Shown piece after piece: positions 45,612 through 64,000 of a stretch of DNA of 64,000 nt. Position 1 is the stretch's first letter. Every line of letters starts with the position of its first letter. The notes below the pieces were generated by a model that saw only the letters and a program-made list of their open reading frames with translations, made no database searches and had not been told where the DNA came from. Origin of the DNA: Gammaproteobacteria bacterium (lineage in GTDB: Bacteria > Pseudomonadota > Gammaproteobacteria > S144-34); NCBI GenBank assembly GCA_026989495.1, contig JALSJE010000021.1, positions 17,239 to 81,238 on the forward strand. Reading direction: 5' to 3'. The position numbers and the translations under genes were made by a program.

Positions 45612-45788
45612 GGCGCGCGTGCCATGGCCACCGGAGAGGGCGGGGCGACCCGCCCTTTCTCTTTGGGGAGAAGGCCAGCAGCAGGCAGCACGTGGCGAGG
45701 GAGGCGCGGCTTCCAGCCGCGCCCCGCCGGCGGGGCCGCTTTCCGCACGGCATCCGCAGACCCTGGCGCCCTGATTCTCATAAGGAAG

Positions 45789-45960: not shown

Positions 45961-46071
45961 TAAGCATTCATTTATCGAAAACAAATCTGGAATCGATTGG
46001 AATTCATCGACTGCTTGTGGACAGAATAACGCGGCCGCCTGAGGCGGCCGCGGACGCGAGGAGGACCCACC

Positions 46072-47244: not shown

Positions 47245-47308
47245 GGACGGCGGGCTGCGGCCCGACCGGCGTAACGATCCATGCCCTGCTGCAGAGACGG
47301 GAGGTGAG

Positions 47309-48217: not shown

Positions 48218-48221
48218 GGCG

Positions 48222-48833
48222 GTGGACGATCCGGCCCTGCGGCGCCTGCTTGCGGGCTTCCGCGCCTTCCGGGCGCGCCACTACGAGCGCCAGCCCGAGC
48301 CCTGGATGCGGCTGGTGCGCGAGGGCCAGCGCCCCGAGGTGCTGGTGGTCGCCTGCAGCGACTCGCGCGTGGACCCGGCGCTGCTGCTCGGCGCCGAGCC
48401 GGGCGAACTCTTCGTGGTGCGCAACGTCGCCGCGCTCGTGCCCCCCTACGCGCCGGACGGCGCCGAGCACGGCACCGCCGCCGCCATCGAGTTCGCCGTC
48501 AAGGTGCTCGGCGTGCGCCATGTGCTGGTGCTGGGCCACGGCGGCTGCGCCGGCGTGGCCGCCGCCCGCGCGGGCACGCCGGCCGGCTGCGAGGAGTTCC
48601 TGGGCCCGTGGACACGCACCGTCGCGGATGCCGTCTCCGGGCTGGACGAGCCCGCCGAGATGGAACGTGCCGCCGTGCGCCGCTCGCTCGAGAACCTGCG
48701 TGGCTACCCCTGGCTGGCCGAGGCTGAGCGGGCCGGACTGCTCGCCGTGCACGGCTGGCGCTTCGACCTGGAGCGTGGCCGCATCGAGGGCTACGATGAG
48801 GCGGCCGGCCGCTTCCGCGACCTCGCGCCCTGA
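48222..48833 (+). CDS. can: beta-class carbonic anhydrase
   Basis: About 203 aa with CSDSRV and HGGCAG zinc-ligand motifs. GTG start 4 nt after the purC stop. Confidence 0.8.
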   Translation: MDDPALRRLLAGFRAFRARHYERQPEPWMRLVREGQRPEVLVVACSDSRVDPALLLGAEPGELFVVRNVAALVPPYAPDGAEHGTAAAIEFAVKVLGVRHVLVLGHGGCAGVAAARAGTPAGCEEFLGPWTRTVADAVSGLDEPAEMERAAVRRSLENLRGYPWLAEAERAGLLAVHGWRFDLERGRIEGYDEAAGRFRDLAP

Positions 48834-48886
48834 GGCGGCGCCGCGCGGCCCGCGCTGACCGGACCCGGTCCGGGAAGGGGACGCCC

Positions 48887-50101
48887 GTGGAGATCCACAC
48901 ATTCTTCCTCCACCTGATGGTGATGCTGCTCACCGCCCGCATCCTGGCGGAGGTGGCGGTGCGCATGCAGTCACCCGCCGTGATCGGCGAGCTGCTCGCA
49001 GGCGTCCTGCTCGGGCCCAGCCTGCTCGGCTGGATCGAGCCGGCCGAGGCGATCCGGCTGCTCGCCGAGATCGGCATCATCCTGCTGCTGTTCGAGGTGG
49101 GGCTGGAGACCGACGTCATGCGGCTCGTGCGCACGGGGGTGCGGTCGGTGATCGTCGCCCTCGGCGGCTTCGTGCTGCCCTTCCTGCTCGGCTACGCGGT
49201 GGCGCGCTGGCTCTTCGGGCTGGAGCTGCTGCCGAGCCTGTTCGTGGGCGGCACCCTGACGGCAACGAGCATCGGGATCACGGTCCGTGTGCTCACCGAT
49301 CTCGCCCGCCACCGCGCCGAGGAAGGGCAGATCGTGCTGGGGGCGGCAGTGCTGGACGACGTGCTGGGCGTGGTGCTGCTCGCTCTGCTCTACGAGTTCT
49401 CGGTCGGCGGCGGCGTCAGCCTCGCCAGCGCCACCAAGGTGCTCCTGTTCGTGGGTGCCTTCTTCTTCGTCGCCCCCGTGATGGCCAAGCTCATCGCCGT
49501 GGTCATCCAGCGCTTCGAGGCCACCACCCAGATCCCGGGCCTCATCCCCACGGCCATCGTCTCGCTGGTGCTGTTCTTCGCCTGGCTCGCGCACGTGATG
49601 GGGGCGCCGGAGCTGCTCGGCGGCTTCGCCGCGGGGCTCGCGCTCTCGCGACGCTTCTTCCTGCCCTTCGGCATGGCCGTCCGCGCCGAGTCCGGCTTCG
49701 CCGAGCGCATCGAGCAGCAGATGCGCCCCATCGTGCACCTGTTCACCCCCATCTTCTTCGTGATGGTGGGGCTTTCCCTCAACCTGCGCGTGATCGACTG
49801 GGAATCTCCCTTCATCTGGGCCTTCTCGCTCACCCTGCTGGCGGTCGCGGTGCTGGGCAAGATGGCCGCCGCCTTCGTCATCGGTGTGCCCATGGCCGCG
49901 CGCTGGGCGGTGGGCATGGCCATGGTGCCGCGCGGCGAGGTGGGTCTGATCTTCGCCGAGCTCGGACGCACCTCGGGAATCCTCGACGCGCAGCTCTATG
50001 CCGGCATGGTGATCGTGATCGCCCTCACCACGCTGCTGCCGCCCTTCGCCCTCAAGTGGTTCTACGCGAGCCGCTACGCGCGGGGGCTGCCGGCCGCCTG
50101 A
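48887..50101 (+). CDS. cation:proton antiporter (CPA2/Kef-type transmembrane domain only)
   Basis: 404 aa with about 12 TM helices and a Na+/H+-exchanger family profile. No RCK domain. Confidence 0.75.
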   Translation: MEIHTFFLHLMVMLLTARILAEVAVRMQSPAVIGELLAGVLLGPSLLGWIEPAEAIRLLAEIGIILLLFEVGLETDVMRLVRTGVRSVIVALGGFVLPFLLGYAVARWLFGLELLPSLFVGGTLTATSIGITVRVLTDLARHRAEEGQIVLGAAVLDDVLGVVLLALLYEFSVGGGVSLASATKVLLFVGAFFFVAPVMAKLIAVVIQRFEATTQIPGLIPTAIVSLVLFFAWLAHVMGAPELLGGFAAGLALSRRFFLPFGMAVRAESGFAERIEQQMRPIVHLFTPIFFVMVGLSLNLRVIDWESPFIWAFSLTLLAVAVLGKMAAAFVIGVPMAARWAVGMAMVPRGEVGLIFAELGRTSGILDAQLYAGMVIVIALTTLLPPFALKWFYASRYARGLPAA

Positions 50102-50205
50102 GCCCCGTCGCGCCAGCGGACGCCCCCGGCGCGGCGCGCGCTTGAGCGCACCGTGCCGCGTCCGCATCTACCATTGTCCTTGGGCTGCCTTCGGGGGACG
50201 CAGGC

Positions 50206-52185
50206 GTGGGTGCGCATGCGCTGATCCAGGTGATGGCGCTGCTGGGCGTGGCGGTGGCGGTGCTCGCCGCCTTCCGCCGGCTCGGCCTGCCCGCGGTGCT
50301 CGGCTACCTGCTGGTGGGCGTGCTGGTGGGCCCGCACGTGCTCCACTGGCTGCCGGACACGGGGCTCACCCGCCTGCTCGCCGAGCTCGGCGTGGTCTTC
50401 CTCCTGTTCACGGTCGGACTGGAATTCTCGCTGCCGGAGCTGCTCGCGCAGCGCGCGGGCGTGCTCGTGCTGGCGTTGCTCCAGGTGATCCTGACGGCAG
50501 CCCTCGGCGCAGGCGCCGCCATGGCCTCGGGGCTGCCGGCCGGCACGGCGGTCGTGGTCGGCGGCGCGGTGGCCATGTCCTCGACCGCGATCGTGGTGCG
50601 CCAGCTCGGCGAGCAGCTCGAGCTCGCCACCCGCCACGGGCGCGCGGTGGTCGCCGTGCTCCTGTTCCAGGACCTCGCCACGCTGCCCTTCCTCGTGCTG
50701 GTCGCGCGCCTCGGCGAGGGCGGTGGGGTGCCCATGGCCGAGCTGGGGGCGGGCCTGGCGCGGGCCGCCGCCGTGGTGGTGGGCCTCTACCTCGCGGGCC
50801 AGTGGCTGGCGCGGCCCTTCGTGCGTTGGGTGGCGGCCATGCGCTCGGCGGAGCTCTTCATGCTGGCCGCGCTCCTCGTGGTGCTGGGCGCGGCGGGCGT
50901 GGCCCAGCTCGCCGGCCTGAGCGCGCCGCTCGGCGCCTTCGTGGCAGGCATGGTGCTGGGCGAGACCGAGTTCCGCCACCAGGTGGAGGAGGACATCCGT
51001 CCCTTCCGCGAGGTGCTCCTCGGGCTGTTCTTCGCCACCGTGGGCATGCTCGTGGACCCGGCGGCGCTGGCGCGGCAGGCGGGTCCTGTGCTGGGGCTCG
51101 CGCTGGCGCTGGTGCTCGCGAAGGGCACGCTCGTCACGGGGCTCGCGCGCGTGAGCGGCATGAGCCGGGGCGTGGCGCTGCGGGTGGGGCTGTGCCTCGC
51201 GCACGCGGGCGAGTTCGGCCTGCTGCTGGTCGCCGCGGCCATGGGCCGCGGCCTGTTTCCGGGGGATGCCGGCCAGGTGCTGCTGGGCGCGCTCGTGCTC
51301 AGCATGGCCGCCGCGCCCGTGCTGGTGCGCCTGAACGGTCCGGCCGCGCGGCGTCTGGGCTTCCTCGGCTACGCCCGCGAGCTGCGCGCGCGCGAGGCGG
51401 CCGTCGCGCGCGAGGCGCAGGGCCTCGCCCGGCATGTGATCGTGGCCGGCTACGGGCGCATCGGCCAGAACGTGGTCCGCCTGCTGGAGGAGGACGGCAT
51501 CCCCTACGTGGCCCTGGACCTGGACCCGGCACGGGTGCGCGAGGCACGCGCCGCAGGCGACCGCGTCGTCTACGGCGACGCCACGCGCGAGGGCATCCTG
51601 CGGGCCGTGGGCGTGGCGCGGGCCCGGCTGCTGGTGGTGGCCTTCGCCGACGACCGCGCGGCCCTGCGGGTGGTCGAGCACGCCCGGCGCCTGCAGCCGG
51701 AGCTGCCCATCGTGGTGCGCACCCGCGACGACAGCCACCTGGAGGCGCTGCTCGCCGCCGGCGCCACCGAGGTGCTGCCCGAGGGCCTGGAGACCAGCCT
51801 CATGATCGGCGCCCAGATCCTGCTCCTGCTGGGGGTGCCGGACTCGGAGGTCACGCGCCGCATCGCCGCCATCCGAGCCGACGACTACCGCCCCTTCCGG
51901 CGCTTCTTCCACGCCCACGAGGCGCACGAAGCGGAGGCGCCCGAGTCCTACCGCAGCCGGCTGCACGCGGTGCCTCTGCCCGCGCGGGCTTGGGCGGTGG
52001 GGCGGCGCATCGACGAGCTCGGCCTGGAGGCGCTGGAGGTGGAGCTGGTGGCCGTGCGCCGCGGCGGCGTCCGGGTTCCGGCGCCGGCGCTGGACACGCG
52101 CCTGCGCGAGGGCGACGTGCTGGTCCTCTCGGGCCCGCGCGAGGCCCTGCAGCGGGCCGAGGCGCGTATCCTGGGCGGGGGCTGA
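50206..52185 (+). CDS. KefB/KefC-like K+ efflux CPA2 antiporter with RCK (TrkA-N) and TrkA-C domains
   Basis: 659 aa. TM domain, then a Rossmann motif (IVAGYGRIGQNV) and a C-terminal RCK_C domain. Confidence 0.8.
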   Translation: MGAHALIQVMALLGVAVAVLAAFRRLGLPAVLGYLLVGVLVGPHVLHWLPDTGLTRLLAELGVVFLLFTVGLEFSLPELLAQRAGVLVLALLQVILTAALGAGAAMASGLPAGTAVVVGGAVAMSSTAIVVRQLGEQLELATRHGRAVVAVLLFQDLATLPFLVLVARLGEGGGVPMAELGAGLARAAAVVVGLYLAGQWLARPFVRWVAAMRSAELFMLAALLVVLGAAGVAQLAGLSAPLGAFVAGMVLGETEFRHQVEEDIRPFREVLLGLFFATVGMLVDPAALARQAGPVLGLALALVLAKGTLVTGLARVSGMSRGVALRVGLCLAHAGEFGLLLVAAAMGRGLFPGDAGQVLLGALVLSMAAAPVLVRLNGPAARRLGFLGYARELRAREAAVAREAQGLARHVIVAGYGRIGQNVVRLLEEDGIPYVALDLDPARVREARAAGDRVVYGDATREGILRAVGVARARLLVVAFADDRAALRVVEHARRLQPELPIVVRTRDDSHLEALLAAGATEVLPEGLETSLMIGAQILLLLGVPDSEVTRRIAAIRADDYRPFRRFFHAHEAHEAEAPESYRSRLHAVPLPARAWAVGRRIDELGLEALEVELVAVRRGGVRVPAPALDTRLREGDVLVLSGPREALQRAEARILGGG

Positions 52186-52256
52186 GCCATGCCCCGCCTG
52201 CACCTGCAGGGCCATTGCCACGACCAGTGATACTAAGACCTACGTTAACAAAGCCT

Positions 52257-52700
52257 CATAAGCTTGCGTATGAGCATGACGGACTCCGGAAGAAGCTCGA
52301 GACGAGCCCGGGCATCTTCTGCAGGCTGCGCAGGGCACCGATGGCGGCAGACACCAGCTCGGCCCTGCTCCTCACGGCAGCCCTGCCGATCCTGCGCTTG
52401 ACATGCGCCCAGACCAGCTCGTCCGGGTTCAGCTCAGGCGAATAGGGCGCAGGAAGAAGAGCTCGATCCGGTCATCATGCTCGGCCACGAACTTCTCCAC
52501 CAGCCTGGCCTTGTGCACCGGATGTCCATCGACGATCAGGAATATCTTGCGGTCCATGCCCGTGATCAGCCGCCTGAGGAAATCCCGAGACACACGCGCC
52601 GTCACTCGCCCCTCCACCGTCATGAACCGGAAATGCCCCCGGGCATTGACAGCAGACAGCATGTTGAACGAGAAGCGCTCACCCGTCGCCTTCACCAGCG
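52257..52700 (-). pseudogene. IS630-family transposase 3' fragment (frameshifted, N-terminus missing)
   Basis: ...RKIFLIVDGHPVHKARLVEKFVAEHDDRIELFFL then, after a frameshift, (LPPYSP)ELNPDELVWAHVKRRIG...LVSSFFRSP. This is the DDE_3 C-terminal region; no HTH N-terminus is present. Confidence 0.6.
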
Positions 52701-52821
52701 GCGTCCACCCAACGTGGTCGCCGTGGCGCCGGCCAACAAGCTCGCCCGCCGGGCCTGGGCAGTGCTGCACCGCGGCGAGCCCTGGCGGCCCCAGCCGGCC
52801 GCGGCGGCGACGGGCATCTGA
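52700..52821 (+). mobile_element. IS110-family transposase C-terminal tail fragment
   Basis: ...VVAVAPANKLARRAWAVLHRGEPWRPQP* resembles the conserved C-terminal helix of IS110/IS1111 transposases. Only about 40 codons are present. Confidence 0.45.
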
Positions 52822-53116
52822 CCCGCCCCTGCGATTGCGCCAGTGGCTGAAGGCGAGACAGGTCGGACCGCGGCAGGGCAGACCCGGGGAAGCTCTCGGG
52901 CCTCGAGCCCGCTTTTCAGATTCGGGACCCTGCCGGCGGTTACCTTCAGGGCCCGGCACCGCGGCAAGGTGCCACCGACAGAGGCCGGATGCAAGCATGC
53001 AGTCGACCCCCCCTCACCTCAGCCCCTGGCAGGACGGGCGGCCCACGAAAACGACAGAAGAGCCAAAAAGAGGGCCCGGCCGGGCCCTCCAGGACGAAGC
53101 CGCGGACCGCGGGCGC

Positions 53117-54868
53117 TCAGGCGCCCACGCCCGGGTTGCCCTCGACGCCCTTGAGGCGCGGGACGTTGAGCTCCTTGATCCTCACGACCTTCTTGTCGCG
53201 CAGGTACTCGGCGACCACGTCCCACACGGGCCGGCCCTCCAGGGGCTTGGCCACGCTCGCCCAGCCCGCGACGGTGTAGGTCTTCTTCGGATCGATGGGC
53301 TGGCCGTCCAGCTCCATGTCGCTGATGCGGTGGCCGATGTCGGCCTCGGGGTCCATGGTGTACCTGAGGCCGCCGACACGCACCATGTCGCCGCCCTGCT
53401 GGTAGTAGGGGTCCTTGTTGAACAGGTTGTCGGCCACGTCCTCGAGGATCATCTTGATCTGCTCGCCCGTCATCTCGTTGAGCGTGACCACCGGGTAGGT
53501 GATGGCGGTCTGGGTCATGACATGCTCGAAGGTGATCGGGTCGCCGGGCAGCACGCTCACGCCCCAGCGGAAGCCGGGAGAGAAGGCGATCTGGGCCCCC
53601 ATCACTTCCATGAGGGCATCGCAGATGAGCTGGTCGAAGGTGCCGTTGAAATTGCCGCGTCGGTAGAGGAGGTCGTCGGTGACGGCGAGCTGCTCCTCGA
53701 GCTTCTCCTTGTAGGGCGCACGCACCTGTTCGATGTAGGCGCTCATGGTCGGGTCCGGCTCGAGGAAGTTCGCGAACACCGGCAGCAGCCTGTAGCGGTA
53801 GTCGCGCACCTTGCCGTCCTTGACGTCGAGGTCCAGCACCGAGAGGAACTTGCCGTTCGAGCCGGAATTGATGACCAGGGTCTTGCCGCCGGGATTGGAG
53901 ACCTCCACCGGGCGCGGCACGGCGTCGTGCGTGTGGCCGCCCATGATGGCGTCGATGCCGCGCACGCGGCTCGCCATCTTGAGGTCCACGTCCATGCCGT
54001 TGTGGGAGAGGACGATGACCACCTGGGCCCCTTTCTCCCGCGCCTCGTCCACCACCTGCTGCATGTCCTCCTCGCGGATGCCGAAGCTCCACTCGGGGAT
54101 GAGGTAGGCGGGGTTGGCGATGGGCGTGTACGGAAAGGCCTGGCCGATGATGGCCACCGGGACCCCGTTGATCTCGCGGATCACGTAGGGCTCGAAGATA
54201 CGCTCGCCCCAGTCCTTGTCCACCACGTTCTGGGCGACGAAGTCGATCTTGCCCTTGAAGTCCTTCTCCACGATCGCCTTCACGCGCTCGGCGCCGAAGG
54301 TGAACTCCCAGTGCGGGCACATGACGTTGACGCCGAGCAGGATCTGGGCGTCCACCATGTCCTGGGCGTTGGACCAGAGCGAGGTGGCCGAGCCCTGCCA
54401 GGTGTCGCCGCCATCCAGCAGCAGCGCCCCGGGCCGCTGCTCGCGGACCTTCTTGACCAGGGTCGCCAGGTGGGCGAAGCCACCTACCTTGCCGTACTTG
54501 CGGGCGAGCTCGACGAAGTCGAGATAGGTGAAGGCATGAGCCTCCGGGGTGCCGGGCTGGATGCCATAGTGCTTGAGGAAGGCCTCGCCCACCAGATGCG
54601 GGGGCTTGCCCCGCATGGAGCCGACGCCGATGTTGTGGCTCGGTTCACGGAAGTAGAGGGGCAGGAGCTGCGCATGGCAGTCGGTGTAGTGCAGCAGGCT
54701 CACGTTGCCGAAGGGCGGCAGCTCGTAGAGGGTGCCCGGGGTCTTGCTCGGCTTTGGCCCGGCGGCGGGCTTCTGCTGGTCCGAGCCAGGCTCGCAGCCG
54801 GCCAGGTTGATCCCGGCCGCGGCCGCCGCCGCCAGGATCTGCATGAACTCACGGCGGGAGATGTTCAT
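53117..54868 (-). CDS. soxB: thiosulfohydrolase SoxB
   Basis: 583 aa with a Tat signal (SRREFMQILAAAAAAG). Dinuclear-Mn metallophosphoesterase/5'-nucleotidase-like fold. Matches SoxB along its length. Confidence 0.9.
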   Translation of the reverse strand: MNISRREFMQILAAAAAAGINLAGCEPGSDQQKPAAGPKPSKTPGTLYELPPFGNVSLLHYTDCHAQLLPLYFREPSHNIGVGSMRGKPPHLVGEAFLKHYGIQPGTPEAHAFTYLDFVELARKYGKVGGFAHLATLVKKVREQRPGALLLDGGDTWQGSATSLWSNAQDMVDAQILLGVNVMCPHWEFTFGAERVKAIVEKDFKGKIDFVAQNVVDKDWGERIFEPYVIREINGVPVAIIGQAFPYTPIANPAYLIPEWSFGIREEDMQQVVDEAREKGAQVVIVLSHNGMDVDLKMASRVRGIDAIMGGHTHDAVPRPVEVSNPGGKTLVINSGSNGKFLSVLDLDVKDGKVRDYRYRLLPVFANFLEPDPTMSAYIEQVRAPYKEKLEEQLAVTDDLLYRRGNFNGTFDQLICDALMEVMGAQIAFSPGFRWGVSVLPGDPITFEHVMTQTAITYPVVTLNEMTGEQIKMILEDVADNLFNKDPYYQQGGDMVRVGGLRYTMDPEADIGHRISDMELDGQPIDPKKTYTVAGWASVAKPLEGRPVWDVVAEYLRDKKVVRIKELNVPRLKGVEGNPGVGA

Positions 54869-55051
54869 CGACGTCCTCCAGGGTCTCGTGCGTTGCCAGG
54901 AAGCGGAAGGCGCGAGCGGGATCGTCGTCGTTGTCGTCGTGATGGCTGGTGCCGTCTGACCGCCCGCAAGCTGCGGCCGATTATAGAAATCGGCACTGCC
55001 GAAGCCAAGCGCCTGACTGAGTGTCCGTGCCTTCGTCCGGTCCGGTTACAG

Positions 55052-55092
55052 GCACAAAAGAAGAGGCCCCGGCACGGGCCGGGGCCTCTCGT
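55052..55092 (-). terminator. intrinsic terminator-like hairpin between soxA and soxB
   Basis: gaggccccggc-acgg-gccggggcctc (11-bp GC stem) followed on the minus strand by uucuuuugug. Confidence 0.45.
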
Positions 55093-55113
55093 GGCCCAAG
55101 GTGCGCCGGCGTG

Positions 55114-55980
55114 TCACATGCGCACGCCGGGCGCGTTGATGGGCAGCCCGTTGCTCATGTAGGTGTGGAAGTACTCCAGCGAGCGGTACTCCACGCTCTG
55201 GGCCTTGAAGGGCTTGGCGCGCACCTGCTTGTTGCAGCCGGTGTAGCGGCGCTGGATGGTGCCGAAGCCGGCCAGCGCGCCGCTGCCCTTGGCCTCCCAC
55301 TTCTTGCGGTAGGCAGGAAAATGGGTCACCTGGCCGAGGGCGGGGCTCAGCAGGTTGGCGCGGATGCGACGACCGGGATTGGCCACGTGACAGTCGGCGC
55401 AGGAGAAGTTGAGCTGGCCGCGCTTGGCGTAGAAGAAGCGCTTGCCGCGCTCATACCAGGCAAGCGCGTCCGGGTCGTCCTCCGGCACAACGACATTGAT
55501 GCGCTTGCCCCGCGAGAGGTAGCCGATGTAGGCGGAGACCGCCGCCAGCTTGCCCTTCTTCCACTTGTAGGGCTTCTCGCCGTTGGCCTTGCGGCACTCG
55601 TTGATGGCGAGCTCGAGCGTGATCACCTCCTTGCGCTTCGGATCCCAGTAGGGGTAGTTCTGCTTGATGCCCTTCTCGGCGTCGGGGAAGCAGTCGGCGA
55701 GCGATTTGCCGTTCTTGAATTTCTTGTAGAACTCGGCCTTGCCGATGTCGAGCCCCAGCTCGTAGGGCGGGAACTCTTCCATCTGCTCCCACTCGGCACG
55801 CATGCCGGCATCGATGGCATAGACGCCATTGGCGAACTCGTCCAGCGGCACGCCGGGGAAGCGTTTCATGTAATACTCCCGGAATGCCTTGAGGTCCTCC
55901 TTCGGGCCGGCCTGGGCGAGAAGCGGGGCGCCTGCCGCCAGGCCCGCCGCGGCAGCCAGGATCAGAGTCTTGCTCTTCAT
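55114..55980 (-). CDS. soxA: diheme cytochrome c SoxA
   Basis: 288 aa with a signal peptide and CADCH heme motif. Matches the SoxA family. Confidence 0.9.
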   Translation of the reverse strand: MKSKTLILAAAAGLAAGAPLLAQAGPKEDLKAFREYYMKRFPGVPLDEFANGVYAIDAGMRAEWEQMEEFPPYELGLDIGKAEFYKKFKNGKSLADCFPDAEKGIKQNYPYWDPKRKEVITLELAINECRKANGEKPYKWKKGKLAAVSAYIGYLSRGKRINVVVPEDDPDALAWYERGKRFFYAKRGQLNFSCADCHVANPGRRIRANLLSPALGQVTHFPAYRKKWEAKGSGALAGFGTIQRRYTGCNKQVRAKPFKAQSVEYRSLEYFHTYMSNGLPINAPGVRM

Positions 55981-56033
55981 GGTTCGTCTCTCCTTATGTT
56001 TCGTTATCGAGACCGTCGGGGTGGCGGGTGCCG

Positions 56034-56348
56034 TCAGCGGATGACGGCCTCCCTGGAGTCGCTCTGGCCCTTGTTGTCCTTCCAGCTCAGCTTCACCTTC
56101 TCTCCCTTCTTCCCGCCCGTGAACTTGAACGAGATATACGGGTTCTTCGAGATCGCCGGACCCCAGTGCGCCGTCAGCACCTCCTTGCCCTCGTGCTCGG
56201 CCTTCACCTCCTGAATGTAATGCGCCGGAATCTTCTTCCCCGTCTTCTTGTCCTTGCGCTGACCCGTCTCCATCGGATGCGCCATCAGCGCCTTCACCAC
56301 CACCACACCATTGCGCTCGGTCGCGCGAATCTTGATCGTCGACGCCAT
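56034..56348 (-). CDS. soxZ: thiosulfate-binding protein SoxZ
   Basis: 104 aa (MASTIKIRA...) matching the SoxZ family. Confidence 0.85.
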   Translation of the reverse strand: MASTIKIRATERNGVVVVKALMAHPMETGQRKDKKTGKKIPAHYIQEVKAEHEGKEVLTAHWGPAISKNPYISFKFTGGKKGEKVKLSWKDNKGQSDSREAVIR

Positions 56349-56379
56349 CGCTCAGTCCTCCTCTCGCTCCAGACCCCGA

Positions 56380-56850
56380 TCAGCCACCACAGCCACCAAT
56401 CGTCACCTTCACCTCCTTGCGCGCACTGTAGAGCTTGCCTCCCGCCTGCACCACCGCAATCACGTCCGAGGTCTTGCCCATCTTGATGCGCGTCGACACA
56501 TAACCCTGCGCATTCGCAGCCAGATCATAGCTCGAGGTCAGAGGCTGCGGGTTCTTCTCCACGAAGATCGCCATGCGCTCCACGCCCCCAAGCCCGGCCG
56601 ACACCGTCACCGGCACCACCGCACCGTTCTCGGCGATGTCCGGCGCCTTCACCCTCACCTTCCCGGAGGCCTCCGTCAGATCGCTCCCCACCAGCGCCTT
56701 CAGCGCATCCTGCACCGACTTCGCCTCGAACGCCGTCTGCGGCCACGCCGCCAGCACCCTCCGCGGCGCCAGCAGCCCACTGCCCACCGCCACACCAACG
56801 GCTCCCACCGCCAGCGTGCCCTTCAGAAAGGTCCTGCGCTTGCTGTCCAC
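56380..56850 (-). CDS. soxY: sulfur carrier protein SoxY
   Basis: 156 aa with a Tat-like signal (KRRTFLKG). The C-terminus is GGCGG, carrying the substrate-binding Cys. Confidence 0.9.
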   Translation of the reverse strand: MDSKRRTFLKGTLAVGAVGVAVGSGLLAPRRVLAAWPQTAFEAKSVQDALKALVGSDLTEASGKVRVKAPDIAENGAVVPVTVSAGLGGVERMAIFVEKNPQPLTSSYDLAANAQGYVSTRIKMGKTSDVIAVVQAGGKLYSARKEVKVTIGGCGG

Positions 56851-56908
56851 TTTCGTTCTACCTCCGGAACCGAGTGCTTGCGAAAATTTCCCGAGCCTTG
56901 CCTGCCGT

Positions 56909-57292
56909 TCAGAGAGTCCAGATGAACTCCACCACCTTGTCGATCTCGTCTTCGGTCAGGATCTTGTGGCGGCCGAAGGGTGGCATGGACGTGTTGGGAT
57001 TGCGCTTGGTCGCGTCCCAGATCTGCTCGCGCAGCGCCTGCTTGCTGGGGAAGCGCTGCTTCATGGCCACCAGCGGCGGGCCGATGTTGCCCGGCAGCGT
57101 GCCGCCCGCGATCTGATGGCAGGCGAGGCAGTTGCCCTTCTTGCGGTTGAAGGCGATCTGCTTGCCCTGCTCGACCACCGACAGGGCCTTCTTCTTCTCG
57201 GCGGCCACGGCCGGGTCCGAAGTGAGGGCCAGGCTGCCGAGCAGCGTGGCCGCGGAGACGGCCGTGGTGATCAGCGTCGCGGCTTTGCGCAT
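56909..57292 (-). CDS. soxX: monoheme cytochrome c SoxX
   Basis: 127 aa with a signal peptide and CLACH heme motif. Confidence 0.85.
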   Translation of the reverse strand: MRKAATLITTAVSAATLLGSLALTSDPAVAAEKKKALSVVEQGKQIAFNRKKGNCLACHQIAGGTLPGNIGPPLVAMKQRFPSKQALREQIWDATKRNPNTSMPPFGRHKILTEDEIDKVVEFIWTL

Positions 57293-57541
57293 GGGATGGT
57301 CCTCCTGGTTCTTCTCGTCGTCGTTGTTGTGTGTTTGGGAGAGATGTCGCGCTGCACCCCGCCAGCCGGCCCGCCGCCCGCCTCGGCGCGGGCCACGATG
57401 CGCGCGGGTAGCGCGTCACGGTGGTGCTGCGTGGGCAATAAGGATACTCAAAAGACGTCCGAACACAAGCGGAATCCCTTGTGCGGTCAGTAAATTAGCG
57501 CGGAGTAATATTCGGGAATACCCCACGCCGGGCGTGTCGGC

Positions 57542-58987
57542 TCAGGGGTGACGCGCCTGCATGGCGCGGGCGTAGTCCTTGATCTCCCCGAGCCGGGCGC
57601 GGATGCGGGAGGCTTCGTAGTAATCCGAGCGGGCCAGGCGTAGCGCCTGCTCGAGCTGCTGGATGGCGGCGTCGACCTGGCCGTTGAGGAAATAGACCTC
57701 GGCCTGGGCCCGATGGGCCTCGGCCCGGTGCCCTGCGGCCTCGGCGACCCGGGCGTACAGGGCGTACAGGCCGGGATCGTCCGTCTCCGGCCGGATCAGA
57801 GGCTGCAGCCGCTTGCGCGCCTGTTCGGGCCGGCCTGCCTCCAGGAGCGCTTCGGCATGGGCGCGCACGAGCAGCGGATTGCCTGGATAGAGGCGCAGGC
57901 TCTGCTCGAGGAGCGCCAGCGCCGCGGCCTTGCGCCCTGCCTCGAGGCGCGCCCGCGCCAGACCGATCCGGTACAGGATCCGGTCCGGGTCCTCATGCTG
58001 TAGCGCCATGAGGATGCGCTCGGCCTCGGCGGCTTTCCCCCGGCGCAGGAGCGCGAGCGCGAGGCCGTAGCGGGCCGCCGCCGTCACGGCATGGGTGCCG
58101 GTGGCGACGGCCTTGCGGAAACGGCTCTCCACCGCGGCCGCATCCTCAGCGGTGAGCACCTCCACGCGAGCGCGCACGAGCTGGTAGGCCAGGCGGTCCT
58201 GTCGGCCCTTCGTCCGCGGCGGGATGCGGGCGCGCGCGTCGGCGATGCGGGAAGGGGTGACGGGGTGGGTGCTCAGGAACTCGGGGGGCTCACCCCCGTA
58301 AAGGCTGCGCTCGCGCTGCAGCCGGCCGAAGAAGCGCACCAGGCCCTCGGGCGAGATGCCTGCCCGCAGCAGGATCTCGATGCCGATGCGGTCGGCCTCG
58401 CGCTCGTTGGCGCGGGTGAAGTTGACCCGGTGCTGGGCGAGCCCCGCCATGCCCGCCGCGAGCGCCGCTTCGCCGGCCTCGGGGCTGCGCGCGCCCAGCA
58501 GGGCGGCCGCAAGCAGGGCCGCGGCCGCGGGCAGGGTCATGCGCCGTGCCTCGTCGAAGGTGCGCGCCAGGTGACGCTGCGTCACGTGCGCCATCTCGTG
58601 GGCCAGGACACCGGCCAGCTCCGACTCGCGCTCGGCGGCGAGGATGAGGCCGGCATGCACGCCGATGTGGCCCCCCGGGGCGGCGAAGGCATTGATGCTG
58701 CGGTCGCGCACCAGAAAGAAGGTGAAGGCCGGGGCGGGCTCGCCGGCGGCGGCCACGAGCTCCGCACCCAGGCCGCGCAGGTAGGTGAGGGCGGGTGGGT
58801 CCTCCAGCACCAGGCGCTTGCGCCGCAGCTCCTGCAGCAGGGCCTGGCCGATGCGCCGCTCCGCCGCGGGAGAGAGTGCCTGGCCGGCCGGGTCGCCGAT
58901 GTCGGGGAGGGCCGGGCTGGCTGGCGGGCCCCACCCCGTGATGAACGCGGCCAGCAGGAGCAGGATCTGTGGTGCGGCAGGTCTCAC
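57542..58987 (-). CDS. bepA: M48-family periplasmic metalloprotease with TPR repeats (BepA/YfgC-like)
   Basis: 481 aa with a signal peptide, HEMAHV zinc motif and a C-terminal TPR region. Confidence 0.8.
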   Translation of the reverse strand: MRPAAPQILLLLAAFITGWGPPASPALPDIGDPAGQALSPAAERRIGQALLQELRRKRLVLEDPPALTYLRGLGAELVAAAGEPAPAFTFFLVRDRSINAFAAPGGHIGVHAGLILAAERESELAGVLAHEMAHVTQRHLARTFDEARRMTLPAAAALLAAALLGARSPEAGEAALAAGMAGLAQHRVNFTRANEREADRIGIEILLRAGISPEGLVRFFGRLQRERSLYGGEPPEFLSTHPVTPSRIADARARIPPRTKGRQDRLAYQLVRARVEVLTAEDAAAVESRFRKAVATGTHAVTAAARYGLALALLRRGKAAEAERILMALQHEDPDRILYRIGLARARLEAGRKAAALALLEQSLRLYPGNPLLVRAHAEALLEAGRPEQARKRLQPLIRPETDDPGLYALYARVAEAAGHRAEAHRAQAEVYFLNGQVDAAIQQLEQALRLARSDYYEASRIRARLGEIKDYARAMQARHP

Positions 58988-59040
58988 CGTTCGTGAGACC
59001 TACCTTATTACACGCAGGTTCCCCGGGAAAGGAGCCGGCG

Positions 59041-59349
59041 TTACTTGCCGAGCGCGGGCGAGGAGGCGTAGAGCGCCATGCGGTCGCGGTCGCGCCAGCT
59101 GTCGGCGCTCAGCAGCGCCTCGGGCACGGCATAGGTGTGGACGGGATCGGCCGGCACCTCCTGCACGATTCGGATCACCTGCTCATAGGGGATCTTGAGC
59201 AGCAGGGCGTCCTGGTCGGTGCGCCGGGCGATCATGAAGCCGTCGTGCAACCGGTAGACATAGATGTTGGCGGGGCGCAGGCGTCCGGTCTCCGGATCCT
59301 TCAGTGTGACCACGTAGCGGGTCCGCTCTTTGAAGTCCTCGCGTCTCAC
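59041..59349 (-). CDS. hypothetical protein (about 102 aa)
   Basis: GTG start with a GGAGGG RBS 8 nt upstream. It resembles no family I can name. Confidence 0.4.
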   Translation of the reverse strand: MRREDFKERTRYVVTLKDPETGRLRPANIYVYRLHDGFMIARRTDQDALLLKIPYEQVIRIVQEVPADPVHTYAVPEALLSADSWRDRDRMALYASSPALGK

Positions 59350-59439
59350 GATGGCTGCCCTCCGGTCCGACGCCCGGAATGTGCGGGCCGGAGCGCGCGC
59401 CGTCAAGGTCTGCATCCCCCGGCACGGAATGGCCCCGGA

Positions 59440-59540
59440 CCGTGCGTCAAAATTACTTGACTGAAATATTAAGATATTATCAAATATTGGTCATCGTCAA
59501 ATTCAGGCCCCCAAGGGGAGAGGACAAGGGGAGAGGAGCT
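59440..59540 (+). promoter_or_regulatory. AT-rich promoter/operator island upstream of rhd-tusA-dsrE3 (sHdr cluster)
   Basis: tcaaaattacTTGACTgaaatattaagatattatcaaatattggtcatcgtcaaattcagg lies in a 70% GC genome. It contains a TTGACT -35-like hexamer and a repeated tcaaat half-site. Confidence 0.3.
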
Positions 59541-59885
59541 GTGCAGTACGGGATTCCCGAGATCGACGTGGCGACTTTGGATGCCTGGCGGGCGGCAGGC
59601 CGCCCGGTGCGGCTGGTGGACGTGCGGACGGCCCCCGAGGTGGCGCAGGGCATCATTCCCGGCGCCGAGCCTCTGCCGCTGCACCTGCTGCCCCTGCGGC
59701 ATCGGGAGCTCGAGGGCACGGAGCCTCTTGTCCTCTACTGCCGCAGCGGGGCGCGGTCGGCGCAGGCGGTCTCCTGGCTCATGGGCCAGGGCCGGCGGGA
59801 GGTCTACAACCTGAGCGGCGGCATCCTGGCCTGGACGCGGACCGGCCGGGCGCTGGAGCTGCCGACCCGCGTCGCCGCGGTGTGA
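59541..59885 (+). CDS. single-domain rhodanese-like sulfurtransferase
   Basis: 114 aa. GTG start with a [12 protein letters not shown] and active-site loop CRSGARS. Confidence 0.8.
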   Translation: MQYGIPEIDVATLDAWRAAGRPVRLVDVRTAPEVAQGIIPGAEPLPLHLLPLRHRELEGTEPLVLYCRSGARSAQAVSWLMGQGRREVYNLSGGILAWTRTGRALELPTRVAAV

Positions 59886-59978
59886 GCACGCTTGCGTCAC
59901 CCGGTGGCATGTCATATAAGAGTTACGCTCCATTCTAAATTCCCCATTCACCCTGGCGGCTGAAGAAAGGAGTGAGAC

Positions 59979-60209
59979 ATGGCGAACTGGGATCAGGAGC
60001 TCGACGCAAGCGGCCTCAACTGCCCGCTGCCGATCCTGCGTGCGAAGAAGGCGCTCGCGGGCATGCAGAGCGGTCAGGTGCTGCGTATCATCGCCACCGA
60101 CCCCGGCTCCGTGAAGGACTTCGAGGCCTTCGCCAAGCAGACGGGTCACGAGCTGCTCGAGTCGAAGGAGGAGGGGGGCAAGTTCCACTTCCTCATCAAG
60201 AAGGCCTGA
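59979..60209 (+). CDS. tusA: TusA-family sulfur carrier protein
   Basis: 76 aa with GLNCPLPIL (the CPxP motif). Confidence 0.85.
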   Translation: MANWDQELDASGLNCPLPILRAKKALAGMQSGQVLRIIATDPGSVKDFEAFAKQTGHELLESKEEGGKFHFLIKKA

Positions 60210-60276
60210 GCCCTTGCGGCCAGGCCTTTTTCTTGCAGACGGCACCTGACCATAACAACACCGGGGAGGGTAGAGA

Positions 60277-60762
60277 ATGTCTGACGAGCAGAAGAAGCTG
60301 GCCATCATCGCGACCAAGGGCACCCTGGACTGGGCCTACCCTCCGTTCATCCTGGCCTCCACCGCGGCGGCGCTCGGCTACGAGTGCCAGATCTTCTTCA
60401 CCTTCTATGGGCTGAACCTGCTCAAGAAGAAGCTCAACCTGAAGGTGAGCTCCCTGGGCAACCCGGGGATGCCCATGCCCATGGGCATGGACAAGTGGTT
60501 CCCGGTGCTGTTCCAGGCCCTGCCCGGCATGGAGGCGATGATGAGCGCCATGATGAAGGCCAAGATGAAGGCCAAGGGCGTGGCCAGCGTGGAGGAGCTG
60601 CGCACGATGTGCCAGGAGGCGGACGTCAAGCTCATCGCCTGCCAGATGACGGTGGACCTGTTCGACATGGATCCGTCACAGTTCATCGACGGCATCGAGT
60701 TCGGCGGCGCGGCGACCTTCTTCGAGTTCGCAGGCGAATCGGACATCTGCCTGTTCATCTGA
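60277..60762 (+). CDS. DsrE/DsrF-like family protein (DsrE3-type)
   Basis: 161 aa resembling the DsrE fold. The rhd-tusA-dsrE3 position ahead of hdrC1B1A matches sHdr clusters. Confidence 0.7.
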   Translation: MSDEQKKLAIIATKGTLDWAYPPFILASTAAALGYECQIFFTFYGLNLLKKKLNLKVSSLGNPGMPMPMGMDKWFPVLFQALPGMEAMMSAMMKAKMKAKGVASVEELRTMCQEADVKLIACQMTVDLFDMDPSQFIDGIEFGGAATFFEFAGESDICLFI

Positions 60763-60773
60763 GAGGGATTCCC

Positions 60774-60805
60774 GGGGCCGCCCGCGTGCGGGCGGCCCCT
60801 TCGGA
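60774..60805 (+). terminator. GC hairpin downstream of dsrE3
   Basis: ggggccgccc-gcgtgc-gggcggcccc followed by ttcgg. The U-tract is weak. Confidence 0.35.
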
Positions 60806-60939
60806 CCGCGGCTGGCGCCGCGGTTCCTTGTGGGCGTATACTTGAGTAAAATACTCGGAAATTGCCGCACGGCAAAAGGGGTAGGATGAGGCGGACGCGA
60901 GCGCTGCGGCTGCCCGCCCGAGCCGAGGGGTGAGAGGAC

Positions 60940-61623
60940 ATGGCGACCTACGCCGAGATGCAGCAGATCTACGAGGACATCCGTAGCGACTTCCGCTACG
61001 ACCACGAGCTCAACGGCTGCCTCAACTGCGGGATCTGCACCGCCACCTGCCCATCCGCGCAGTTCTACGACTACAGCCCGCGCGAGATCGTGCAGCTGCT
61101 CTGGACCGAGAACGTCGAGCAGATCTACGACGCCATGCAGGAGAAGATCTGGGCCTGTGCCCAGTGCATGACCTGCGCGGCGCGCTGCCCCTTCAAGAAC
61201 TCCCCTGGCGGGCTCGTGGCCATCATGCGCGAGGTCGCCATCAAGCACGGGCTGCAGTCGGCCAAGGACGTGCTGCGGCCCTTCGGGCGGGTGATGCTCA
61301 AGCTCATCACCACGGGCAACCAGCTCTCGCCCGACATGATCCAGCCCGACCACTTCCCGGACTGGGGCCCCAACATCCAGAAGGTCGAGGGCGACCTCAG
61401 GACCCTGCGCAAGGCCATCCCGCTCAAGACCCTGCAGACGGTGGAGACCGCCTGGGAGGTCTCCCTCAAGACCTCGGTGGAGATGTACACGATCTGGGAG
61501 ATGACCGGGGTCCTGACCGCCCTGGAGCAGATGGACGAGAACCTCTTCGATGTGATCGAGGACTTCATCGACGAGAAGAAGGAAGAGTACGAGGAGTGGC
61601 TCGAGGAGCAGGAGGAGGACTGA
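60940..61623 (+). CDS. hdrC1: heterodisulfide reductase subunit C-like protein (sHdrC1)
   Basis: 227 aa with two 4Fe-4S motifs (CLNCGICTATCP and CAQCMTCAARCP) and an acidic C-terminus. Confidence 0.8.
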   Translation: MATYAEMQQIYEDIRSDFRYDHELNGCLNCGICTATCPSAQFYDYSPREIVQLLWTENVEQIYDAMQEKIWACAQCMTCAARCPFKNSPGGLVAIMREVAIKHGLQSAKDVLRPFGRVMLKLITTGNQLSPDMIQPDHFPDWGPNIQKVEGDLRTLRKAIPLKTLQTVETAWEVSLKTSVEMYTIWEMTGVLTALEQMDENLFDVIEDFIDEKKEEYEEWLEEQEED

Positions 61624-61675
61624 GACCGGGCCAAGCCGGCCCAGCCACGCGTGAAACCCGACGGAGGCACGCACC

Positions 61676-63028
61676 ATGAGCAGCACCAGCCAGACTCCCC
61701 CCAACAGCGGTGGCGGCATCGCCGGCCACGGCTCCTTCTTCCAGGAGACCAACCTCTCGCGCGAGGAGGCGCTCAAGGCCACCGAGTGGGTCCGCAAGCA
61801 TGTGGACCGGCGCACGGTGGACCTGGGTGAGCGCATGGACGATATCCGCGAGCACATGTGGGAGCTCGAGAGGGACGGTGAGATCATCGTCCACCGCATC
61901 ACCGACGCGCACGAGCCCGTGGTGGTGAAGACGCTCTTCGGGTGGGAAAAGAAGATCCCGACCAAGCAGCTCTGGCACCACAAGTCCTGCGGGCAATGCG
62001 GCAACATCCCGGGCTATCCCACATCGCTGCTCTGGTTCATGAACCGGTTCGGCTACGTGCCGGGGCGGGACTACCTGGACGAGACCGACCAGACCTCCTG
62101 CACCGCCTGGAACTACCACGGCTCAGGCATCGGCAACGTGGAGTCGCTGGCTGCGGTCTTCCTGCGCAACTTCCACCAGGCCTACGTGTCCGGCCTGCAG
62201 CACGGCCACCAGGCGGGCCACTTCTTCCCGCTGGTGCACTGCGGCACCTCCTTCGGCAATTACAAGGAGATCCGCAAGTACCTGATCGAATCCGCCGAGC
62301 TGCGCGAGCGGGTCAAGAAGATCCTGGACCGCCTCGGGCGCCTGGTGGACGGCAAGCTCGTGATCCCCGAGGAGATCGTGCATTACTCGGAGTGGGTGCA
62401 CGTCATGCGTCACCGCATCGCCGAGCTCCAGAAGTACGACGTCTCCAACATCCGGGTCACGGCGCACGTGGCCTGCCATTACTACAAGATGGTGCACGAG
62501 GATGCCGTCTACGACGCCGGGGTGCTGGGAGGCAACCGCACCGCGATCGTGACCTCGGTGGCCGAGGCGCTCGGCGCACAGGTGATCGACTACTCCACCT
62601 GGTACGACTGCTGCGGCTTCGGCTTCCGCCACATCATCTCCGAGCGCGAGTTCACGCGCTCGTTCACCATGGACCGCAAGATCCGGGTCGCCAAGGAGGA
62701 GGCCAAGGCCGACGTCATGCTGACCAACGACACCGGCTGCGTGACGACCATGGACAAGAACCAGTGGATCGGCAAGGCCCACGGCCAGGACTACCAGGTG
62801 CCCATCATGGCGGACGTGCAGTTCGCCGCGCTCGCCTGCGGCGCCGATCCCTTCAAGATCGTGCAGCTGCAGTGGCATGCCTCGCCCTGCGAGGAGCTGG
62901 TGGAGAAGATGGGCATCGACTGGAACGCCTCGAAGAAGGCCTTCGAGGAGTATCTCAAGCAGGTCGAGCAGGGCAACATCGAGTACCTCTACGACCCCGA
63001 GCTCGCCTACGGCGGAGGGAAGGCGTAA
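61676..63028 (+). CDS. hdrB1: heterodisulfide reductase subunit B-like protein (sHdrB1, two CCG domains)
   Basis: 450 aa with Cys-rich CCG-type motifs (CGQCG..., CHYYKM..., YDCCGFG...). Confidence 0.85.
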   Translation: MSSTSQTPPNSGGGIAGHGSFFQETNLSREEALKATEWVRKHVDRRTVDLGERMDDIREHMWELERDGEIIVHRITDAHEPVVVKTLFGWEKKIPTKQLWHHKSCGQCGNIPGYPTSLLWFMNRFGYVPGRDYLDETDQTSCTAWNYHGSGIGNVESLAAVFLRNFHQAYVSGLQHGHQAGHFFPLVHCGTSFGNYKEIRKYLIESAELRERVKKILDRLGRLVDGKLVIPEEIVHYSEWVHVMRHRIAELQKYDVSNIRVTAHVACHYYKMVHEDAVYDAGVLGGNRTAIVTSVAEALGAQVIDYSTWYDCCGFGFRHIISEREFTRSFTMDRKIRVAKEEAKADVMLTNDTGCVTTMDKNQWIGKAHGQDYQVPIMADVQFAALACGADPFKIVQLQWHASPCEELVEKMGIDWNASKKAFEEYLKQVEQGNIEYLYDPELAYGGGKA

Positions 63029-64000
63029 ATGCAGAACACCGTGCTGGTCGTGGGCGCAGGCCCGGCCGGGCTCTCGGCCGCCGCGAGCGTGGCGGCCGCG
63101 GGCCACCGGGCCGTGCTGGTCGAGAAGGAGGAGGTCCTGGGCGGGGCGCCGATCCTGTCGGGCTATGCCAGGCTGATCCCATCGGGCGAGTGGGCCAAGG
63201 ACGCCATCGGGCGCATGGTCGCGCGCGTGGAGCAGGACCCCAACGTCACCATCCACAAGGGCACGCGCGTGACGCAGGTGGACGGGGAGGCCGGCGACTT
63301 CACCTGCACCCTGAGCAACGGCGGGACGGTGCAGGCCGGCGCCATCATCCTGTGCACGGGCTTCACCCACTTCGACTCCATCAACAAGCCGGAGTGGGGT
63401 TTCGGCACCTATGAGGACGTGCTCACCACCACGCAGATGGAGCAGATGGTGGCGGGCGGCAAGATCTACTGCCCTTCGGACGGGCGCACGCCCGAGCGCG
63501 TGGCCATCCTCCTGTGCGTGGGCTCCCGGGACCGGCAGATCGGGCGCGAGTGGTGCTCCAAGGTCTGCTGCACGGTCTCGGCCAATCTCGCCATGGAGAT
63601 CAAGGAGCTCTCGCCCGAGACGGACGTCTTCATCTACTACATGGACATCCGCACCTTCGGGCTGTACGAGGACCGCTACTACTGGAAGTCCCAGGAGGAG
63701 TTCAAGACCAAGTTCGTCAAGGCGCGCATCGCCGAGGTGACCAGGGCGCCCGACGGGCGTCTCCTGGTGAAGGGCGAGGATACGCTGGTCAAGCGGCCCA
63801 TCGTCATCCCCTTCGACATCGTGGTGCACGCCATCGGCATGGACCCCAACGAGGAGAACCCGGAGATCGCACGGATCTTCGGCGTCGGGCTGGAGAAGCA
63901 TGGCTTCATCGAGCGGGCCGAGCACTACACCAACACCTGCGGCACCACCCGGCGGGGCATCTATGCCGCCGGCGCAGCCTACGGGCCGGAGTCCATCGAC
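63029..64000 (+). CDS. hdrA: heterodisulfide reductase subunit A-like flavoprotein (sHdrA), 5' partial, truncated by window end
   Basis: ATG directly after the hdrB1 TAA. FAD motif VVGAGPAGLSAA, and an HdrA-type Cys cluster (CVGSRD...CSKVCC). Confidence 0.85.
   Translation, partial: MQNTVLVVGAGPAGLSAAASVAAAGHRAVLVEKEEVLGGAPILSGYARLIPSGEWAKDAIGRMVARVEQDPNVTIHKGTRVTQVDGEAGDFTCTLSNGGTVQAGAIILCTGFTHFDSINKPEWGFGTYEDVLTTTQMEQMVAGGKIYCPSDGRTPERVAILLCVGSRDRQIGREWCSKVCCTVSANLAMEIKELSPETDVFIYYMDIRTFGLYEDRYYWKSQEEFKTKFVKARIAEVTRAPDGRLLVKGEDTLVKRPIVIPFDIVVHAIGMDPNEENPEIARIFGVGLEKHGFIERAEHYTNTCGTTRRGIYAAGAAYGPESID

Follow-up and report, generated by a model that had tools for sequence, protein, structure and literature searches.

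A soxXYZAB gene set beside a type I shdr-lbpA cluster on a GC-rich gammaproteobacterial contig

The sox and shdr gene sets

The stretch of DNA analysed here, called the window, comprises 64,000 nucleotides of contig JALSJE010000021.1 (assembly GCA_026989495.1, positions 17,239 to 81,238 of the forward strand) from an uncultured gammaproteobacterium. Towards its end it carries a set of sox genes on the minus strand and, divergently oriented, the beginning of a cluster for a sulfur-oxidising heterodisulfide-reductase-like (sHdr) system. The locus is very probably a two-module region for the oxidation of thiosulfate and sulfane sulfur, composed of a truncated periplasmic Sox system and a type I sHdr-LbpA system. 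This reading is based on observed gene identities, gene order and motifs, the completeness of both modules, the type of the sHdr proteins, and the neighbourhood of sox and shdr genes in relatives.

The guanine plus cytosine (GC) content of the window is high (0.64–0.78), and because of it shadow open reading frames fill the raw lists. Genes were picked by codon-position GC and a codon-usage score, and they were cross-checked against the gene calls on public contigs with identical proteins. The nearest named relatives of the host are metagenome-assembled genomes (MAGs) termed 'Chromatiales bacterium' (clusters of at least 90% identity). The best GTDB species match of sHdrB1 has an identity of about 86%, and none is closer.

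The Sox identities were judged by the NCBIfam equivalog cut-offs, which all five proteins exceed:

53117-54868, minus strand: soxB, thiosulfohydrolase, 583 residues (TIGR04486, 899.5 bits, cut-off 550; 5_nucleotid_C domain)
55114-55980, minus strand: soxA, c-type cytochrome, 288 residues, signal peptide (TIGR04484, 227 bits, cut-off 110; PF21342)
56034-56348, minus strand: soxZ, 104 residues (TIGR04490, 144.5 bits, cut-off 76)
56380-56850, minus strand: soxY, carrier protein, 156 residues (TIGR04488, 176 bits, cut-off 125; TAT_signal)
56909-57292, minus strand: soxX, monohaem cytochrome c, 127 residues (TIGR04485, 97.8 bits, cut-off 61)

The soxX-Y-Z-A-B set is thus complete, as the earlier note on this DNA had claimed, and the expected motifs are in place. 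SoxY has a twin-arginine translocation (Tat) signal and ends in ...TIGGCGG, the GGCGG arm, and the N-terminus of SoxB is of the Tat type (RREF). SoxA and SoxX each contain one CxxCH motif (CADCH at residue 194 and CLACH, respectively). The same note found no soxCD in the window, and the Pfam tables of the called genes agree: neither in positions 1-64000 nor in the 9-kb extension described below do they list an Oxidored_molyb or Mo-co_dimer protein (SoxC-type molybdoenzyme), a dihaem SoxD or DsrAB. These tables cover positions 1-13955, 13906-34623 and 36072-52892 through contigs with identical proteins, and a metagenome contig (L001) covers the rest; the only gene that they missed is ahcY.

Two minus-strand genes separate soxX from the plus-strand cluster, which is cut by the window end:

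57542-58987, minus strand: BepA-like periplasmic M48 metalloprotease with a TPR domain, 481 residues (Peptidase_M48 and TPR; NF052400, 391 bits, cut-off 570)
59041-59349, minus strand: hyp102, 102 residues, conserved protein, putatively a stand-alone WYL-like beta-barrel, transcribed divergently from the shdr operon
59541-59885, plus strand: rhd, single-domain rhodanese, 114 residues, GTG start, active-site CRSGARS (PF00581, 57 bits; gene call in L001)
59979-60209, plus strand: tusA, 76 residues, CPLP active-site motif (PF01206, 94.6 bits)
60277-60762, plus strand: dsrE2, 161 residues (NF047629 'DsrE2', 313 bits, cut-off 210; PF13686)
60940-61623, plus strand: shdrC1, 227 residues, two CxxCxxC ferredoxin motifs (HdrC models, 86-90 bits, cut-offs 270-350; Fer4_8)
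61676-63028, plus strand: shdrB1, 450 residues, one CCG motif (PF02754)
63029-64000, plus strand: shdrA, first 324 of 349 codons, with the GxGxxG motif for binding of flavin adenine dinucleotide (FAD) and an iron-sulfur cysteine cluster (C..CSKVCC) in the window

The earlier note placed the two gene sets within about 2 kb of each other, which holds (2249 bp from the soxX start to the rhd start), and it named the intervening genes correctly as a BepA-like protease and a 102-residue protein. The CPxP motif of TusA has Leu at the X position, as in the TusA proteins of sulfur oxidisers. Hdr-like B subunits from Thioalkalivibrio, Ectothiorhodospira and Acidiferrobacterales share 85–87% identity with sHdrB1.

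All genes and places of the order rhd-tusA-DsrE-hdrC1-hdrB1-hdrA given for the plus strand from 59541 stand, except that the DsrE gene had been labelled DsrE3. This label is rejected by the NF047629 score, in a match that covers the whole profile, and by a structure comparison, in which DsrE2B (2QS7) matched over the full length with 52.6 bits and DsrE3A (3MC3) only partially with 43 bits; the assignment of the two structures is that of PMC11094781. By its sequence, the gene after tusA is of the DsrE2 type. The DsrE3-type protein of the locus is instead encoded by a 132-residue gene that lies beyond the window between two lbpA genes. In the PDB it matches 3MC3 and nothing else, and we term this DsrE3-like protein DsrE3B. 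The dsrE2 gene occurs in 50% of shdr clusters, and DsrE2A is found in the systems of Aquifex, Thiorhodospira and Thioalkalivibrio K90mix (PMC11094781).

Continuation of the cluster and type of the Hdr-like proteins

The continuation was obtained from L001, a 19-kb metagenome contig in ENA assembly ERZ27262642 found through an exact look-up of the HdrB1 protein. It is 99.9% identical to positions 56698-64000 of the window in BLAST (7.3 kb with four mismatches and one 3-nt indel) and runs 9 kb beyond the window end. The part of the contig used here reaches from the N-terminal codons of soxY to beyond lipS2; going by the record coordinates, 2.9 kb more of it would extend into soxB. Its gene order is shdrA-hyp-shdrC2-shdrB2-lbpA1-dsrE3B-lbpA2-lipS1-slpl(AB)-lipT-lipS2, followed by a convergent FadL-type gene, with these features:

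shdrA on L001: complete, 349 residues
hyp on L001: 280 residues, without a family match
shdrB2 on L001: two CCG motifs, at residues 42 and 205
lbpA1 and lbpA2 on L001: GcvH-like (GCV_H), flanking the DsrE gene, with an ESGKW lysine motif in both
lipS1 on L001: NF053742, 201 bits, cut-off 230
slpl(AB) on L001: fused LplA/LplB ligase
lipT on L001: geranylgeranyl-reductase-like flavoprotein
lipS2 on L001: NF053743, 200 bits, cut-off 270

The hyp, hdrC2B2 and lbpA genes, which had been predicted past the window end, are therefore all there. So are the lipoate-assembly genes that the earlier note proposed to look for on an extended contig; an ArsR-type sHdrR, named in the same proposal, was not found in the locus. 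LbpA1 and LbpA2 are putative lipoate-binding proteins, as suggested by the lipoyl-lysine motif, and the two lipoate-assembly proteins LipS1 and LipS2 contain the radical-SAM motif CxxxCxxC. The single CCG motif of sHdrB1 is located at residue 312.

In NCBIfam, the three subunits are best matched by models named for the methanogen HdrC, HdrB and HdrA, which could suggest that the genes encode a methanogen-type Hdr or another paralogue (Qmo-, Flox- or Lut/GlcF-like) outside sulfur oxidation. However, the scores are 3- to 6-fold under the curated cut-offs (C, 90 against 270; B, 124 against 450; A, 243 against 1100 bits). The short, complete HdrA matches sHdrA of Hyphomicrobium denitrificans (PDB 6TJR) with 480 bits (E 4e-143) over residues 4–347 of 349, whereas methanogen HdrA chains match it only over residues ~100–340 with about 200 bits. 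Both the FAD-binding GxGxxG and the cysteine cluster CVGSRDRQIGREWCSKxCCTVS are conserved between HdrA and 6TJR. Moreover, the gene order C1B1A-hyp-C2B2-lbpA-dsrE-lbpA-lipS1-slpl-lipT-lipS2 is diagnostic, and a type I shdrC1B1AHC2B2 cluster with lipoate-assembly genes has been defined in PMC11094781. We consider a methanogen-type or other paralogue most improbable and reject it on the 6TJR match and the LbpA and lipoate-assembly context. Judged from these sequences, the cluster is a type I sHdr-LbpA system, and the sHdr assignment of the earlier note is upheld.

The methanogen HdrABC complexes (PDB 5ODC and 7BKB) and the proteins encoded here share a common ancestry of the A, B and C subunits and the CCG motifs for non-cubane iron-sulfur clusters. 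HdrA here differs in its length (349 against ~650 residues) and is without the ferredoxin and N-terminal domains. The gene context differs as well, consisting of lipoate-binding proteins and sulfur transferases and not of Mvh or Fdh.

Neighbourhood in relatives and the intervening region

To compare the neighbourhood, loci around sHdrB1 homologues were taken from 80 GTDB species, and homologues of 23 proteins of the extended locus were located by tblastn. The counts refer to the 47 loci in which shdrC1-B1-A is intact and the upstream flank measures 8 kb or more. At least one sox gene lies within 10 kb upstream of shdrB1 in 21 of the 47, and soxB is present nearby in 15. Four or five sox genes occur in five loci (L032, L036, L042, L052 and L056), and the truncated L006 is one more. 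The same layout, with sox-bepA-hyp102 on one side and rhd-tusA-dsrE2-shdr on the other, recurs in L006, L032, L036, L042, L052, L085 and L089. Ectothiorhodospira has soxB-soxZ-soxY-bepA-hyp102 divergent from tusA-dsrE2-shdr, and in the complete genome of Ectothiorhodospiraceae bacterium 2226 and in a Logan contig, hyp102-bepA-soxX-Y-Z-A stands opposite rhd/tusA-dsrE2-shdr.

Several further features lie around the sox genes and upstream of rhd:

52429-52998, minus strand: IS630-family transposase remnant (DDE_3), between a Kef-type antiporter gene and soxB
53069-53090, minus strand: terminator-like hairpin 3' of soxB (9-bp stem with 7 GC pairs, then a T run)
55061-55090, minus strand: strong terminator-like hairpin between soxA and soxB (13-bp stem, 10 GC pairs)
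55008-54980, minus strand: promoter-like, sigma-70-like site 5' of soxB (10 of 12 matches)
57489-57512, minus strand: AT-rich boxes AATATTA and AATTTACT upstream of soxX, a candidate shared cis-element (each word twice in 64 kb)
59448-59505, no strand: AT-rich divergent promoter region that separates hyp102 and rhd (AAATTACT, AATATTA and one more AATATT)

The IS630 remnant beside soxB could mean that the juxtaposition of the two modules is an assembly artefact or the result of a recent mobile-element insertion. The contigs of the independent assembly ERZ27262642 break at this remnant, and GC drops from 0.70–0.78 upstream (1-52000) to 0.64–0.70 in the sox-shdr block (52001-64000). However, L001 independently carries the region from the N-terminal codons of soxY to beyond lipS2, and many genomes share the Sox-sHdr synteny. 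The GC content at third codon positions (GC3) of the sox and hdr genes is 0.89–0.97, like that of the rest of the window; the drop is therefore due to codon positions 1 and 2, that is, to protein composition, and not to a foreign origin. An artefact or a recent insertion is thus very unlikely, and a horizontal transfer of the block, for which the lower GC and the remnant had made a case, is unsupported.

The hairpins 3' of soxA and soxB and the promoter-like site 5' of soxB point to two or more sox transcripts, and soxB is probably transcribed apart from soxXYZA. On the side of soxX, a possible link to the shdr genes was noticed. The palindrome AATATT has three copies in 64 kb, against 0.28 expected; one of them lies upstream of soxX, and the other two lie between hyp102 and rhd (59450-59488). 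The words AATATTA and AAWTTACT have exactly two copies each in 64 kb, one upstream of soxX and one upstream of rhd. AATATT recurs upstream of soxX and/or rhd in the GC-rich relatives L085, L032, L036, L052 and L016, and no other all-A/T hexamer is as frequent in 48 intergenic regions on the hyp102 side (19 copies; 3.4±1.8 in shuffled sequences). Of these 48 regions, only 12 contain AATATT-type words, and an 8-mer survey of the hyp102-side regions gave no motif common to all loci. Since the order of the boxes differs between the sox and shdr sites of the window, no defined operator can be claimed. The loci are also phylogenetically related, and promoters are AT-rich anyway; the AATATT sites, which may be an operator or a promoter element, are therefore kept as a lead for shared regulation and not as a result.

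The protease gene is best called 'BepA-like': the HExxH motif and the M48/TPR architecture are present, and its NF052400 score is under the equivalog cut-off. The gene is kept between sox and hyp102/shdr in 25 of the 47 related loci. No relevant paper came up when the literature was searched for sHdr together with WYL or BepA.

The hyp102 protein has no Pfam (including WYL) or NCBIfam match. A single-sequence search returned only three clusters and made it look like an orphan, which was overturned by tblastn on the related loci and by a profile search. The latter found 264 clusters, nearly all of 101 residues and all annotated as 'hypothetical' save one UniRef 'WYL domain-containing' entry. 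Of the 47 loci, 37 carry a homologue (39–57% identity) on the divergent side of the shdr operon. Among the 60 loci whose flank is long enough, 36 have one no farther than 2.5 kb from shdrC1. All five homologues that were looked up independently sit divergently beside (soeABC-)rhd-tusA-dsrE2-shdr. WYL domains are usually fused to an N-terminal winged helix-turn-helix domain; the 102 residues contain no helix-turn-helix (HTH), and the Foldseek matches to WYL/Sm-like beta-barrels are weak (E ~0.1). The family has an invariant C-terminal Y-S-S-P-x-x-G-K tail, which is predicted to be disordered. Tentatively, hyp102 might belong to an undescribed family of stand-alone WYL-like beta-barrel proteins that, in Gamma- and Betaproteobacteria, are the dedicated divergent partners of type I shdr (and soeABC-shdr) operons. 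With the AATATT sites, it could form a sensing or regulatory (or sulfur-handling) layer in place of the ArsR-type sHdrR/SoxR of Hyphomicrobium, a proposal that we regard as possible and not as the likelier outcome.

In Sulfuriferula- and Sulfurirhabdus-type loci (L044, 3163-7740; L087, 2866-7511), a SoeABC-like set is located between hyp102 and rhd-tusA-dsrE2-shdr. It consists of a molybdenum subunit, an iron-sulfur subunit and a DmsC-like anchor, and ties genes for sulfite oxidation to the divergent unit.

The other content of the window is housekeeping: pyrBC, pilTU, proC, metXW, gshAB, a pilGHIJ-chpA cluster and metF-ahcY-metK, with tkt-gap-pgk-pyk-fba, carbonic anhydrase, two Na/H-type antiporters and the IS630-family remnant as further genes. 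The Pil-Chp type chemosensory cluster is complete (19401-30985, plus strand) and comprises two response regulators, CheW, a PilJ-type methyl-accepting chemotaxis protein, CheR, a 1844-residue ChpA-like multi-Hpt kinase, CheB and CheW. After tkt-gap-pgk-pyk come two genes for class II fructose-bisphosphate aldolases (44547-45611 and 46072-47244, both plus strand), of which the second carries a fused Dabb (stress-responsive alpha/beta barrel) domain at its C-terminus and scores under all equivalog cut-offs.

Proposed sulfur route and comparison with known systems

The route proposed here draws on published work on homologues for its chemistry, for the transfer of sulfur from Sox to sHdr and for sulfite as the product. 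SoxXA would oxidatively couple thiosulfate to the cysteine in the GGCGG arm of SoxY, and SoxB would hydrolyse off the sulfone group, which is released as sulfate. Without SoxCD, the sulfane sulfur would stay on SoxY, and it would then enter the cytoplasm. There, rhodanese, TusA, DsrE2 and DsrE3B may form a relay that hands persulfide sulfur to LbpA1/2 and the sHdrC1B1A-H-C2B2 complex. This complex would oxidise the sulfane sulfur to sulfite. The products of lipS1, slpl(AB), lipT and lipS2 would mature LbpA, and the sulfite-oxidising enzyme must be encoded elsewhere.

A truncated Sox system that hands sulfane sulfur to sHdr is a published model (PMC10451225, PMC11094781, PMC6382920). H. denitrificans depends on both Sox and sHdr to oxidise thiosulfate, and there the genes of the two systems are adjacent and co-regulated (PMC10451225). 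The sulfur-relay biochemistry of type I clusters has been described (PMC11094781), and among 75 Thioalkalivibrio genomes, all have a truncated sox set and 73 have hdr-like genes (PMC6382920), so that the same thiosulfate route has been deduced for these 73. The coordinated thiosulfate route that the earlier note suggested from the linkage is in line with this model.

Several points weigh against the two-module reading. Linkage of sox and shdr in 21 of 47 loci is common and not universal, and for this reason it is on its own weak evidence of functional coupling. According to the gene and Pfam tables, the region contains no gene for a SoxT/YeeE-type sulfur importer, unlike in H. denitrificans. 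The Pfam tables from 36 kb onward, including the 9 kb beyond the window, also list no ArsR-type sHdrR/SoxR and no HTH-domain gene. A sulfur importer, a sulfite-oxidising enzyme and a regulator are not encoded in the locus, unless the WYL-like 102-residue protein has a role in regulation. The scores of LipS1 and LipS2 are slightly under the NCBIfam cut-offs (201 against 230 and 200 against 270 bits). Finally, the survey spans the window and the 9-kb extension; soxCD, rDsr, SoeABC or Apr/Sat may lie elsewhere in the genome. The earlier note counted an rDsr system elsewhere as a refutation, which is too strict: because four Thioalkalivibrio genomes hold both rDsr and hdr-like genes (PMC6382920), dsr genes elsewhere would not refute a role of sHdr.

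Alternatively, the adjacency of Sox and sHdr could be an inherited neighbourhood without functional coupling. The sHdr system would then serve mainly for sulfane sulfur derived from sulfide or elemental sulfur, and the sulfur on SoxY would be deposited as sulfur or polysulfide or passed to an rDsr system encoded elsewhere. The 26 of 47 related loci that have no sox gene within 10 kb, the soxB gene that alone is adjacent in most Thioalkalivibrio loci, the four Thioalkalivibrio genomes with both rDsr and hdr-like genes, and the hairpins 3' of soxA and soxB, which suggest separate transcription units, all fit such an inherited neighbourhood. However, H. denitrificans needs both systems for one thiosulfate route and regulates them together (PMC10451225), the upstream regions of sox and shdr have rare AT-rich words in common, and the Sox-sHdr layout recurs across orders. 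We therefore consider an uncoupled neighbourhood unlikely, and a coupled pair of Sox and sHdr-LbpA modules remains the preferred reading.

The locus leaves the picture of the pathway unchanged. It adds one more uncultured, unusually GC-rich gammaproteobacterial sulfur oxidiser with a truncated Sox system and sHdr-LbpA, and it documents the frequent neighbourhood of the two modules in this lineage. In practice, the contig can be annotated with confidence, with DsrE3 corrected to DsrE2. Two small leads for work on sHdr are also provided: the unannotated, conserved gene of ~101 residues, which shdr operons nearly always have as their divergent neighbour, and the BepA-like protease conserved between sox and shdr.

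One of the closest known systems is that of H. denitrificans X(T) (Hden_0678 onward), whose pathway has been shown genetically (PMC10451225; PMC11094781). There, shdr-lbpA lies by soxXA and soxYZB. In both organisms a Sox set, truncated there and probably so here, adjoins a type I shdrC1B1AHC2B2-lbpA cluster that includes lipS1, slpl(AB) and lipS2, and the sHdrA encoded here is homologous to 6TJR over its full length. H. denitrificans, unlike the locus described here, has the ArsR-type regulators sHdrR and SoxR, the transporters SoxT1A/B, DsrE3C and Rhd442. The present locus, unlike H. denitrificans, has rhd-tusA-dsrE2, a dsrE3B gene with an lbpA gene on either side, the bepA-like gene and hyp102.

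The hdr-like operon of Thioalkalivibrio has the same order of hdrC1B1A-hyp-hdrC2B2-lbpA1-dsrE-lbpA2 (PMC6382920), its sHdrB1 is 85–86% identical, and in L007-L012 and L084 soxB-bepA-hyp102 is divergent from rhd-tusA-shdr. In the sampled Thioalkalivibrio loci, however, only soxB is adjacent, soxAX and soxYZ lie elsewhere, and no dsrE2 is present between tusA and shdrC1, whereas here all five sox genes form one block and the GC content is much higher. Nearly identical synteny is found in Ectothiorhodospiraceae bacterium 2226 (CP054689.1, L085) and in the MAG loci L006, L032, L036, L042, L052 and L089, although the protein identities are only 45–85%. The blocks of L085 and L089 lack soxB, which in L085 is replaced by a second SoxA/TsdA-like gene. 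The combination and layout of Sox and sHdr described here is a new example of an arrangement that is well known from Hyphomicrobium, Thioalkalivibrio and their relatives.

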